DNA from: a virus
Lineage: Duplodnaviria > Caudoviricetes
Reading direction: 5' to 3' (one strand)
IMG/VR virus record: IMGVR_UViG_3300033145_000237
Coordinates: 1-33,544 of that record
Length of the DNA stretch: 33,544 nucleotides
Shown here: piece after piece, positions 24,542 through 31,239 of the stretch
Position numbering within the stretch: the stretch's first letter is position 1
Layout: each line of letters opens with the position of its first letter
Position numbers and translations under genes: made by a program
The notes under the pieces: model-generated
Databases searched by the model: none
Told to the model about the DNA's origin: nothing
Seen by the model: only the letters and a program-made list of their open reading frames with translations

Positions 24542-24576
24542 AAAATAAAGAGGTGTGGGTTTTAACCACACCCCTT
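24542..24576 (-). terminator. Intrinsic terminator after the capsid genes
   Basis: Minus strand GGGGTGTGG-TTAAAAC-CCACACCTC followed by TTTATTTT. Confidence 0.8.
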
Positions 24577-25064: not shown

Positions 25065-26009
25065 TTAAGCACATTCTACTTTTAAAACCATATCTTCATT
25101 CATACGAATTGCATTACCACCAAAGTCAACCTTTATTTGCCATGTTTCACCAACTTTTTCTGGCAAATAATCAATCTTAAACGTAGGTGCTAAATGCCAT
25201 GCAGCTTGAATACCATCATTCAGCCATGCAAATAACTCGTAAACATTTGTATCACCATCAGCATCATTGTTAGTTCCCTTAGTAATGGCATTGGTATTTA
25301 TGAAATTGATTCCCATATACCTATTGATTGTTCCATTTACAAGAGCTTTTACTTCTGATGTATCAGTACCTTGAATTTCTGCCTCTCTAAGCAAGTCTGA
25401 TTTCTGCTTAAAAGAACAACAGAGATTTACAGGAAGGCCATCTTCATTGCCAAGAGTAGCAAACTTTTCTCTAATGAGAATAAGCTTGTTAATTGTAAGG
25501 CCAGTCGATGTACCACCAGCAGCACCATCTATATCAGTGTCATGCACAACAGTACGACCATCAGCATTGCTTATGGCTGTGTTTGTAAATGTATAACCAC
25601 CAGAAATATCACCAGGATTCTTACCACCAGTTACAGCAGCATCGAAAGCGTTTAAGATAATATCTCTTTTCTGACGCTCAACAGCGAAAATCTGACTTTG
25701 CATAAACTTACTCTGTGGGTCAGTGTGTTGTGCTATCTTATCCTGCCTGTCTTCAAGTATAGCATCATAGTAGAATTCAGGGAATAACCATCGTCTCCTG
25801 AAATCTCTGTCAGAGTGGTCTACGTCTGCAAACTTAGTAGTTTTCTTTTTGAGCGTAGTTGTGCCAATGTCATCAAACGACATCTGTTCGCCTTTAAGAG
25901 GAACTTGTGTAACATAACCCTCAAAAGGATTTTTTGTTTCTTGTGGAATGTTTTTATACCCACTTGTATAAGCAAGTACAAAAGCATCTTCATAATTTGG
26001 ATTTGCCAT
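25065..26009 (-). CDS. Major capsid protein (BPP-1-like type)
   Basis: 314 aa; AFV-x2-Y-x6-Q, RRW, D-x2-DK...DP-x-S, R-x2-D-x-I, VKALVNG-x-I-x2-YMG-x2-FI, A-x-R-x-NE-x2-V. Confidence 0.92.
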   Translation of the reverse strand: MANPNYEDAFVLAYTSGYKNIPQETKNPFEGYVTQVPLKGEQMSFDDIGTTTLKKKTTKFADVDHSDRDFRRRWLFPEFYYDAILEDRQDKIAQHTDPQSKFMQSQIFAVERQKRDIILNAFDAAVTGGKNPGDISGGYTFTNTAISNADGRTVVHDTDIDGAAGGTSTGLTINKLILIREKFATLGNEDGLPVNLCCSFKQKSDLLREAEIQGTDTSEVKALVNGTINRYMGINFINTNAITKGTNNDADGDTNVYELFAWLNDGIQAAWHLAPTFKIDYLPEKVGETWQIKVDFGGNAIRMNEDMVLKVECA

Positions 26010-26137
26010 TTTAATAGCCCTTAAAAAAATAATATTGTCAATTGTCGCTCAAGTTGTCCTTATAAGGGCTATCGCTGGATTTAACGTCTTTTAGACGAAT
26101 GGGCTACCATTATCTTGTGGGGCGTTTAAGCTTATCC
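26010..26137 (-). promoter_or_regulatory. Structured major-capsid mRNA leader with anti-Shine-Dalgarno
   Basis: Perfect inverted repeat 26014-26023 / 26063-26072 covering the RBS; several short hairpins with AYAA bulges. Confidence 0.6.
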
Positions 26138-26926
26138 ACCTATTCCCATAAGCTCAAGATATTTCGCATGTACCTTTTCATGGTCAGGGTGCATATTATC
26201 ATTCCATGCTGGATTATCTGCTATTGCTTTTAGTTCTTCTTCACGACTTAATTTTTGAGTTACACTCGAAGTCTTAATACCATCTTCACCTCTAAGCTTA
26301 TTTAAATCATATAAAGCTCTTATTATTTCTGGGTCACTATCCAGTTTTTTCTTCTCTAACAGTTCAAGTAGTTTAAACTCTTTAGCAAACTCTAATGCTT
26401 TAACAGTATTAGCATTCCTCTCTTCTCCCCAGTCTTTAGCTAATGCTTCATCGCAAGCTTTTAATTCAGCTTCGTATTTTGCATCTTCTTCTTTTTTAAG
26501 ATTCTCACCTTTTTCTGCAAGATTTTTAAATACATTTATATGCTCTTTTACGGCTATTTCGTATTGTGCTTGAGTTAATCCTGCTTTATGGGCAGTCTCT
26601 TTAAAAGCAGCCATACTGTTTTCATCTAACTCTATACCAGAATCATTTTTGAAATCATACTTGTCAGGTGTTTCAGGCCTACCGAGTTTATTATAAATAT
26701 CTCCCCATTCTTCGCTATCAGGTTCTGTTGGTAACTTTATAATTGAGTCTCTATTACCTACAAACTTTTCAAGTTCAGAATAACTCTTTGCCATATCGTC
26801 TGGAGTTGACCAACCTTTAGTCTGCATTAACTCATTTGTTTCGGTTGAAAATGAACCAGACTCTACTGTTGTACTTGGATTTTCAGTAACTTGTGTTTCT
26901 TCGCTTGATGTTTCTTGTGTTTCCAT
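26132..26926 (-). CDS. Capsid scaffolding protein
   Basis: Acidic N-terminus, KSY-x-ELEK-x-VG, IYNKLGRPETPD-x-Y, AHKAGLTQAQ, L-x-KDWG, HPDH-x-K. Confidence 0.9.
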   Translation of the reverse strand: METQETSSEETQVTENPSTTVESGSFSTETNELMQTKGWSTPDDMAKSYSELEKFVGNRDSIIKLPTEPDSEEWGDIYNKLGRPETPDKYDFKNDSGIELDENSMAAFKETAHKAGLTQAQYEIAVKEHINVFKNLAEKGENLKKEEDAKYEAELKACDEALAKDWGEERNANTVKALEFAKEFKLLELLEKKKLDSDPEIIRALYDLNKLRGEDGIKTSSVTQKLSREEELKAIADNPAWNDNMHPDHEKVHAKYLELMGIGG

Positions 26927-29649: not shown

Positions 29650-31239
29650 TTAAATTGCAAATTTATTTACGCAAAATTTCCTTCGCTGGACATCAACTTG
29701 ATTCCTACGACGAGTAGAAACCCTTGATGCCGCTAATAAAAAATAAATAAATGCGTGGAAGTAATGGTCTTCCCCGCCACTTAACTTAATCCATTTGGCC
29801 TTAGCTATACCAGTGTCAGGGTGAACTTCTACCCTACGAGCAGTCCTCGTTAATTGATACGCAAACTTTTTAATCTCTGGTGTTATCTTTGGTAGCATAA
29901 CTCTATTACCTATAAAAGTATCATATACTTTATCACAATACTCGTTTCTATTACATTTGACAATACCATCTTTATTAAAATTTGGCTTTTCTAACATATT
30001 TTCATTGTAAAAACATCTGTATACCCTGTATCTCTGGCTATTTTGGAATTTTTTAGACTGATGAATGTCAGGCATTGCATCTATAACACATGACTTTACA
30101 TTAAACTTTTTAGCGATTACGTCTAATTCATCAAAGTCATTTACTGTCATTACATTTAAAATATCATACCTGTCTTTATCTATCCTGATTCCTACAACTA
30201 CATGTAATGTATCGCCAACGTCAACCCCCATACATGTCTCACCTGTTGACATTACTTGAGGTGCTAAATTAGTACACGTCATTAAAACGTCTTGTTCACT
30301 TAATTGATTCTCTGTCTCTGTTGACGCAAGACCTAAACTTGTTCGCATAAACTCACATCTACGCTGCCCCTCCGTATTGTCCCACTGATACATCATTTCT
30401 TCTAAATCTGCAAATGGACTCATTAAACCACTTATCCATAAGCCACCTTCACGCCTGTCAGGGTATTCAGCCTCCCAGTGCCCATCTAAGACGCTTATCT
30501 CACTACCGCAATGAACACACACTCTTATCCATTTACCGCCTCTAAACGCTATACTCTTGGGAAATTCACTGGCTAAGTGAGTGTACTTGCCACATGAATT
30601 GCATTTTATCTGCCACATCCTCTGGTCAGAATTCTCATATAACTCGTCTATACCATAATTGGGGTATGTAGGACTACCAAAATTGAACTCATAAGAAAAC
30701 TTGCTTCGTTTAAGACGCTGTTTACTCATATATACCATGTCCATGTCCATTAAATCTAACTCATCTCTGACTATCATATCACATGGAATACTGCGTAAAG
30801 CATCACTATCTTTCTCGTTCGTATTGCCAACTTTCTTGCTCTGTGCCCCTACAAAGACTATACTGCGACCGTTAATCTCCTTTATCCCCGCTGTATTCGT
30901 ATTGACCATCTTCTTTAACCAGGGATTAAAATCAAATATCGGGTCAAAACTAACTTTACTCAACTTCTCCGCACTCGTTACATAAGGCATCATGTACATT
31001 ATATTCTGGTCGAATTTCCTGTATACACACGAATGTACCGATTCAATAAACTTAGTCGTAGTTACACAGCCTTGTGCAGCTTTTCGTACATTAAAAACCT
31101 TCTTGTCACAATTTATCAATCCACCTAAATAAGGCATGCCAGCTAAATCAAAAGTAACGCCGTCTCGAAGCTTTAAACCTCGTAATTTAGCCCAAAGTAA
31201 GCAATCTACTTGCATTAACTTTTCTGTGGTATTATCCAT
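29650..31239 (-). CDS. terL: Terminase large subunit, GpA-like
   Basis: RKAAQ (Walker A region), Y-x-MP, LRS-x-P-x-D-x4-DELD (Walker B), SPT, SDQR-x-W-x2-KC-x2-C...C-x2-C, MGVDVG, VIDA-x-P, DHYFHA. Confidence 0.92.
   Translation of the reverse strand: MDNTTEKLMQVDCLLWAKLRGLKLRDGVTFDLAGMPYLGGLINCDKKVFNVRKAAQGCVTTTKFIESVHSCVYRKFDQNIMYMMPYVTSAEKLSKVSFDPIFDFNPWLKKMVNTNTAGIKEINGRSIVFVGAQSKKVGNTNEKDSDALRSIPCDMIVRDELDLMDMDMVYMSKQRLKRSKFSYEFNFGSPTYPNYGIDELYENSDQRMWQIKCNSCGKYTHLASEFPKSIAFRGGKWIRVCVHCGSEISVLDGHWEAEYPDRREGGLWISGLMSPFADLEEMMYQWDNTEGQRRCEFMRTSLGLASTETENQLSEQDVLMTCTNLAPQVMSTGETCMGVDVGDTLHVVVGIRIDKDRYDILNVMTVNDFDELDVIAKKFNVKSCVIDAMPDIHQSKKFQNSQRYRVYRCFYNENMLEKPNFNKDGIVKCNRNEYCDKVYDTFIGNRVMLPKITPEIKKFAYQLTRTARRVEVHPDTGIAKAKWIKLSGGEDHYFHAFIYFLLAASRVSTRRRNQVDVQRRKFCVNKFAI

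Follow-up and report, generated by a model that had tools for sequence, protein, structure and literature searches.

A conserved RNA leader with a bulged motif precedes the major capsid gene of a short-tailed phage and resembles a protein-responsive translational switch

The balance between coat and scaffold in phages appears to be understood mainly from P22, and solely as self-repression of the scaffold. Control through a refolded leader is known from the mom gene of phage Mu, where the Com protein, a dedicated zinc-finger regulator, binds upstream, refolds the leader and frees the initiation region. As for the P22 scaffolding protein gp8, one report implicates its N-terminus in translational control (10.1101/2022.12.13.520362). 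According to Fremin et al. 2023 (PMC10690425), the pseudoknot in the leader of T4/T2 gene 32 is bound by a phage protein for translational control. The same source lists candidate RNAs upstream of PHA00201 capsid genes (DNAVirus_231, 3706, 3823, 3864 and 5397), as well as the GP20-a/b motifs.

The DNA analyzed here, referred to as the window, is the whole of a 33,544-nt stretch of the linear virus record IMGVR_UViG_3300033145_000237, which by its gene content belongs to a short-tailed phage. Its head and tail genes include those of terminase, portal (PF12236), a Bbp19-like protein, scaffold, major capsid protein and tail tubular proteins. The scaffold gene product matches phrog_3742 (E 3e-35) and phrog_458 (E 5e-14), and its homologues carry the annotation capsid assembly protein. 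Its feature neighbour in the ESM Atlas is the T7 capsid assembly protein family PF05396 (score 0.95; the family is on 66% of the cluster), and its model is all-helical, with a long helix (residues 119-183) and a C-terminal helix pair. The capsid protein shows 24-30% identity with the capsids of Pelagibacter phage HTVC010P and Ralstonia phage DU_RP_II. The terminase large subunit, encoded at 29650-31239 on the minus strand, has a lambda gpA-type ATPase domain (PF05876), and the head-tail genes are T7/HTVC010P-like. A terminator-like 11-bp hairpin with a U tail (24548-24576, minus strand) follows a 148-aa gene located 3' of the capsid gene. A sigma-70-like site at 26138-26109 was rejected, such sites being below chance level (4 found vs 8.2 expected). 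The features of the locus are collected in Table 1.

Table 1. Features of the scaffold–capsid region of the window (Shine-Dalgarno, SD).
Feature	Positions	Strand	Remarks
Scaffolding (capsid assembly) protein gene, 264 aa	26132..26926	-	UAA stop codon is the P1 bulge
N-terminal scaffold block, residues 28-57, predicted two helices, candidate reader of motif M	26756..26845	-	Co-occurs with motif M
P1 hairpin, motif M copy 1	26117..26139	-	G26136-C26120, A26135·C26121 wobble, UAA bulge 26134-26132, G26131-C26122
P2, 5-bp hairpin with 4-nt loop	26098..26111	-	95.8% of cells paired; both-side changes in 4/5 pairs
P3 stem (26097-26085), A-rich linker and strand completing the pseudoknot in relatives	26076..26097	-	Second stem absent here
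P4 hairpin, motif M copy 2 in opposite polarity, predicted ON state	26047..26075	-	A26070-U26052, G26069-C26053, C26068·A26057 wobble, CAA bulge 26056-26054, C26067-G26058
Anti-SD strand (5' arm of P4), predicted OFF state	26063..26073	-	11 bp with 26023-26013
U-rich tract, SD region (AAGGG 26022-26018) and spacer of the capsid gene	26010..26033	-	U-tract conserved in alignment A2
Major capsid protein gene, 314 aa	25065..26009	-	PF19821 E 1e-45; phrog_3437 E 1e-38

Searches with the capsid protein yielded 3 + 48 viral loci, 80 of 133 metagenomic loci and one genome locus. They gave 86 distinct upstream regions including the window, of which 73 entered alignment A2; those left out were L127 (a wrong start call), the divergent L038, L086 and L132, and nine near-duplicates, and the three divergent loci later served among the held-out tests. 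L132, from a Thermoguttaceae MAG, is a prophage-like locus with a full leader and the sole genome match for the clade of the window. It hints at planctomycete hosts and does not fix the host of the window.

Judged by comparison of these sequences, the 122 nt that separate the scaffold stop from the capsid start on the mRNA strand form a conserved RNA leader with the elements P1, P2, a P3 pseudoknot and P4. With its penalties on the A·C pair and on gaps, RNAalifold recovered just P1 and P2 from A2; the structure was then named by hand. Across the 73 leaders, 84.0% of the cells of the 26 hand-named pairs are paired, compared with 73.3% after shuffling and at most 41.6% when the pairs are slid, the latter control being biased by the naming by hand. 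Changes on both sides of a pair number 287 vs 127 in shuffled alignments, a count reached in 0/500 shuffles. Since relatedness inflates compensatory counts, 35 pairs of tree neighbours were also compared. The ratios of both-side to one-side changes were 18/2 and 11/3 for P2, 10/4 and 12/3 for P1, 14/2, 12/7 and 8/4 for the pseudoknot, 6/1 for P4 and 5/2 for its wobble, and 7/16 and 4/9 for non-partner controls. Compensatory changes, which the original prediction had proposed to look for in the scaffold–capsid gaps of relatives, are found across the 73 leaders.

The individual elements proposed earlier look somewhat altered in the light of the relatives. A CGUCU-AAA-AGACG stem does exist (P3), and in most relatives it is stem 1 of an H-type pseudoknot. 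The pseudoknot helix is paired in 70.3% of cells and has both-side changes at all 4 pairs; a second stem of at least 3 bp is possible in 66/73 leaders, and the window is among the 7/73 below 3 bp. Five occurrences of GAYAA are indeed present in the leader, a number reached in 0/3000 shuffles, and two of the five are conserved: those at P1 and at P4 occur in 63/73 leaders each, the one before P2 in 6/73 and the downstream ones in 10/73. Three hairpins with a 4-nt AYAA bulge had been proposed. P1 and P4 are bulged and kept in relatives, and the third is not kept: given the rarity of GAYAA before P2, this element is best described as the ordinary hairpin P2. The bulge itself has three bases (YAA), not four, because the remaining base forms a wobble with the supposedly unpaired C, the pair being A·C or G·U in relatives.

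A covariance model of the leader (R1) recovered it once in the window and in 5/8 held-out loci, including HTVC010P (E 7e-5, a rough value), and missed the leaders of DU_RP_II, ct8d5349 and L086. Rfam 15 gave nothing at the gathering score for the window leader (best E 0.11, below gathering) and no match over the leader in 60 related loci at E ≤ 1. In HTVC010P (L133 1230-1406), DU_RP_II (L134, about 1150-1360) and ct8d5349 (L135 1168-1353), an ORF of ~60 aa lies between the scaffold gene and the leader, with its end overlapping P1 or P2; in the window, an ORF of this kind is absent from this place. Several known element types were considered and rejected. A K-turn at the base of P4 does not fit, the GA/GA columns being symmetric and conserved in just 46-61 of 73 leaders, and an RNase III site is unlikely in our judgement, the leader helices being short. 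The CsrA/RsmA consensus is GGA in a hairpin loop; in this leader the corresponding bases are in stems and variable (column 49 G55/A16, column 170 A44/G29, column 172 A48/G23).

P1 and P4 carry the same motif in opposite polarity. In this motif, designated M, a G-C pair that hardly ever varies is followed by a purine-pyrimidine position, then by a YAA bulge and finally by a closing pair (5'-G-R-YAA-S / S'-Y-C-3'). A wobble occupies the middle position in 77/90 P1-type matches (A·C 67, G·U 10) and in 68/70 P4-type matches (A·C 46, G·U 22), with A-U in only 3; A·C and G·U wobbles share the same shape. The P1-type motif is present in 61/73 and the P4-type motif in 54/73 leaders of the window's clade, and some relatives have two or three copies of P1. 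Placement is strongly biased: in the 73 loci, 125 matches fall at -250 to -50 vs 12 elsewhere and 11 on the antisense strand, and the whole window contains only the 2 matches in the leader.

According to the original prediction, the strand 26072-26063 is perfectly complementary to 26023-26014, covers the AAGGG of the ribosome-binding site (RBS) and stops 4 nt short of the AUG. All of this holds, with the AUG at 26009, and the helix reaches 11 bp if the G·U at 26073/26013 is counted. A perfect inverted repeat of at least 10 bp arises by chance in 26/3000 dinucleotide shuffles and in 6/523 tiles of the window. The fold of the whole leader region has a z of only -1.78, and its minimum-energy form is the SD-paired one. 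For the structures named in the window, the calculated energies are -24.9 kcal/mol (OFF) vs -13.3 kcal/mol (ON), with an ensemble difference of 5.3 kcal/mol, and the probability of P4 is below 0.2 in 69/73 unconstrained leader folds, all in an energy model that ignores wobble-bulge and tertiary terms. The OFF form is the predicted resting state, from which P4 would need stabilising.

The 5' arm of P4 pairs with its own RBS at -12.3 vs -5.9 with the RBS of the next gene, its own being better in 56/58 cases; the pairing is weaker than -9 kcal/mol in 15/73 leaders, including the nearest relatives L059, L057, L052 and L053. Among tree neighbours in the window's clade, the whole P4 region pairs better with its own RBS than after neighbour swaps in 15/23 informative pairs (p=0.013, with a definition of the region picked after the result for the 5' arm alone was seen), and the 5' arm alone in 16 pairs vs 11 worse (p=0.13). 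Co-adaptation of SD and anti-SD, which the original prediction had proposed as a check, thus reaches significance for the P4 region as a whole and not for the arm by itself. Within individual alignment columns, most changes in OFF pairs between tree neighbours affect a single side. Two A2 leaders (the window and L107) have A-U for G-C in P4, both with U at the SD-side partner; U is also found there in 11/70 leaders that keep G in P4.

The sister clade is represented by 69 non-redundant of 101 loci, with P4-type M in 52/69 and P1-type M in 41/69 leaders. Here the whole P4 region prefers its own RBS over neighbour swaps in 17/25 informative pairs (p=0.0007). Which part of P4 engages the RBS, whether 5' arm, loop or 3' arm, differs between lineages, and the pairing excludes P4 in every case. 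As far as can be read from the sequences, P4 and SD pairing are therefore mutually exclusive in both PF19821 clades.

For T7-type capsid genes, 138 loci were fetched and 83 non-redundant ones retained. P4-type M occurs in 51/83 of their leaders against a background of 0.014 per 105 nt, and P1-type M in 2/83. The two capsid families are homologous (cross-matches phrog_267/phrog_3437). A pattern scan for P4 had reached four such leaders; its output is mostly chance (120 loci, with 3 PF19821-type and 4 T7-type leaders, L249 judged by sequence only), R1 matched 2/80 of the pattern-scan loci, and the T7-like leaders were missed by this model. Among 11 named T7-like phages picked across the ranking, P4-type M is present in BB8, CRP-171, P-SCSP1m, Hroenn and 9515-10a, and absent from the capsid leaders of T7, RSB2, Mora-5, Cota, Atu_ph02 and NED111; in T7 the phi10 promoter lies at this place. 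No direct P4:RBS pairing was detected in T7-like leaders (11/24 neighbour pairs, p=0.62), and an indirect switch gave p=0.26 in the neighbour test. The strand 3' of P4 can pair upstream or beside the RBS in these leaders, which beats permutation and is not significant among tree neighbours. In addition, T7-like leaders such as those of L274, L286, L292 and L304 surround P4 with outer stems of their own (within -170 to -1 relative to the capsid start). A short hairpin whose loop is rich in U recurs ~100-150 nt ahead of the capsid gene, for example in L297, L312, L313, L316, L330, L348, L386 and L388.

A conserved structure upstream of one gene is thus found in the capsid leader, and a mutually exclusive helix sequestering the SD in the two PF19821 clades and not in the T7-like leaders. 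The two-state design put forward originally keeps its conservation and co-adaptation in two clades, while several of the nearest relatives have no anti-SD and the T7-like leaders gave a null result.

In the sister clade, M is also found inside the scaffold gene, beginning 6-37 nt after the A of the AUG in 25/40 loci, vs a mean of 1.7 and a maximum of 6 after synonymous shuffling. It is encoded through the peptides GNP, GQG and DNG and with both wobbles, which on comparative grounds means that selection acts on the RNA at this operator-like position. The scaffold-start copy occurs in 6/37 T7-like loci (one group), and it is absent from the window and from 53/55 loci of its clade (present in 2/55). 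At +20 to +60 of the scaffold gene, part of the window's clade (L022, L078, L091 and others) has a conserved stretch with loose P1-type matches and YAC bulges; such YAC matches at scaffold starts number 5/55, near background, and are possibly a degenerate operator.

The sole block common to both scaffold families is N-terminal (residues 36-61; hhalign probability 67 over 26 columns), with K37 conserved in 53/55, Y49 in 52/55 and E53 in 48/55 scaffolds of the window's clade. Scaffold N-termini are available for 52 T7-like loci, of which 45 show agreement between motif and block (28 have both and 17 have neither; Fisher 1.5e-7). On the tree, the independent pairs that point in the same direction number 3.9 of 7 and those in the opposite direction 0 (median p=0.125, not significant). 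The block was scored by a lysine pattern chosen post hoc, which just 12/55 scaffolds of the window's clade retain. The block tends to go missing together with M, as in T7, vB_EcoM_APEC and RSB2; vB_EcoM_APEC has a homologous scaffold from which profile positions 1-73 are missing, and its gap of 14 nt holds no leader. In Alteromonas phage ZP6 (L505 1114-1270), a variant form of M, with G·U as the wobble and UAG as the bulge, occurs in two hairpins beside a diverged scaffold block. The window scaffold is acidic (58 D/E, 35 K/R), the block has no net positive charge, and comparison of the scaffold with solved structures gave no fold match to an RNA-binding domain and no match at all.

A protein ligand of the leader is favoured, and the comparative evidence points to the scaffold rather than the capsid protein. 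At the level of sequence, the comparisons establish the helices, motif M and its two copies, the exclusion between P4 and SD pairing, and the presence of M before T7-type capsid genes and in the scaffold start of the sister clade; from these we infer that M is a protein site and that the protein is the scaffold, acting through its N-terminal block. The leader would then be a protein-activated translation switch, a proposal for which we see about equal grounds for belief and doubt. In the unbound leader, the prediction is that the P4 strand masks the capsid RBS by base pairing. Free scaffold would bind the wobble-plus-YAA-bulge motif through its N-terminal block and hold P4 folded, which would free the RBS and turn capsid synthesis on; P1 at the scaffold stop codon may be a second site, recruiting newly made or dimeric scaffold. 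In the sister clade, the scaffold-start copy at +11 to +40 could be a repressing operator, so that one signal would lower scaffold and raise coat. The net effect would be to limit coat production to times of surplus scaffold. A little below even we rate the wider possibility that in both podovirus head families (HTVC010P/DU_RP_II-type and many T7-type) the scaffold moonlights as a sequence-specific RNA-binding regulator, self-repressing and capsid-activating through an ancient motif and so fixing head-protein stoichiometry, and that lineages like that of T7 gave up the motif along with the reader domain. On the comparative evidence, the leader itself is real, conserved and widespread, and the mechanism is plausible.

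The same switch might be operated by a host RNA-binding protein, such as a ribosomal protein, or by another phage protein, which would set the levels of capsid and scaffold with no feedback. A universal host protein would account for the retention of M in phages of alpha-, beta- and gammaproteobacteria, cyanobacteria and others; moreover, the scaffold block lacks basic character and the resemblance between the two scaffold families is weak. However, the copies of M are confined to the scaffold start, the scaffold stop and the capsid leader, and M is lost along with the scaffold N-terminal domain in vB_EcoM_APEC, T7 and RSB2, so this reader seems unlikely.

A leader without any ligand, in which ribosomes finishing the scaffold or co-transcriptional folding of P4 open a window for capsid initiation, is improbable. 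In 60 loci, P1 contains the scaffold stop in 17 (as its bulge), comes no more than about 12 nt after it in 21, falls within the end of the gene in 9 and is more distant in 13; the first two groups, together with the transcription of P4 ahead of the SD evident from the sequence order, would suit such a kinetic or ribosome-coupled device. It leaves unexplained, however, an invariant non-canonical motif with A·C/G·U exchange and a copy of M inside the scaffold start, and M is also found in T7-like phages whose scaffold ends hundreds of bases upstream.

Less probable again is the capsid protein as the ligand, which would imply positive feedback on its own synthesis and late shut-off of the scaffold. 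The homology of the two capsid families and the constant position of M in front of the capsid gene agree with it, but positive feedback would worsen a coat excess, and the loss of M tracks the scaffold block while the capsid stays. A metabolite or ion riboswitch, with P1-P4 and the pseudoknot as aptamer and the anti-SD as expression platform, ranks lower still in our estimate: despite the conserved core, variable expression platform and H-type pseudoknot, M recurs as a lone hairpin elsewhere (in T7-like leaders almost without P1-type copies, at scaffold starts, and as tandem extra P1 copies), the pseudoknot is lost in the window phage and there is no Rfam riboswitch match. Finally, a role of the leader in mRNA stability or processing with incidental SD pairing would suit the 15/73 leaders and the T7-like ones in which the anti-SD is missing, but is the least credible, as the lineage-specific 10-12-bp matches between the variable P4 loop and the RBS in the sister clade would hardly arise by chance.

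If scaffold does activate the leader, an activating protein-responsive RNA switch would be common to abundant marine and soil phages, and a compact RNA–protein pair for synthetic translational control could possibly be derived from it. The small defined RNA motif and the named candidate reader domain make the scaffold-to-coat question directly testable, and there are natural cultured controls: the motif is present in HTVC010P, CRP-171, P-SCSP1m and BB8, and motif and block are both lost in T7 and vB_EcoM_APEC.

As regards known systems, the C-loop is an internal loop with a three-nucleotide C-A-A-type bulge between stacked pairs. M has a bulge of the same type, but unlike the C-loop it is flanked by the A·C/G·U wobble. 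With P22 gp8 (10.1101/2022.12.13.520362), the likeness lies in a phage scaffold with an N-terminus implicated in translational control, and the scaffold-start copy of M in the sister clade fits an operator. P22 control reportedly targets the scaffold gene itself, whereas here the main site is the capsid leader, with predicted activation through an anti-SD switch. No kinship of the window scaffold to P22 gp8 was found by PDB sequence or fold matches, its neighbour being the T7-type PF05396. The gene 32 leader, as summarized in PMC10690425, is likewise a pseudoknot-bearing phage leader under translational control; it serves to repress the gene of a DNA-binding protein by its own product, with no bulged motif or anti-SD exchange, whereas the pseudoknot here appears dispensable. 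The candidates of Fremin et al. 2023 (PMC10690425) are also predicted RNAs beside T7-type capsid or GP20 genes; they are tabled without a mechanism, measure 43-80 nt (the four looked up) and sit no more than 25 bp from the gene, compared with 50-140 nt upstream for M. An overlap of the PHA00201 candidates with M as it occurs in T7-like leaders is possible. In the openly readable literature that was searched, no description of the leader element was found. The leader works like a protein-responsive translational switch, which is a known kind, and its motif family and the activating link from scaffold to coat appear undescribed. The scan of 34 window proteins gave no Com family. The likeness to Com/mom of phage Mu consists in binding upstream that would refold the leader; unlike Com, the candidate regulator here is a structural assembly protein.
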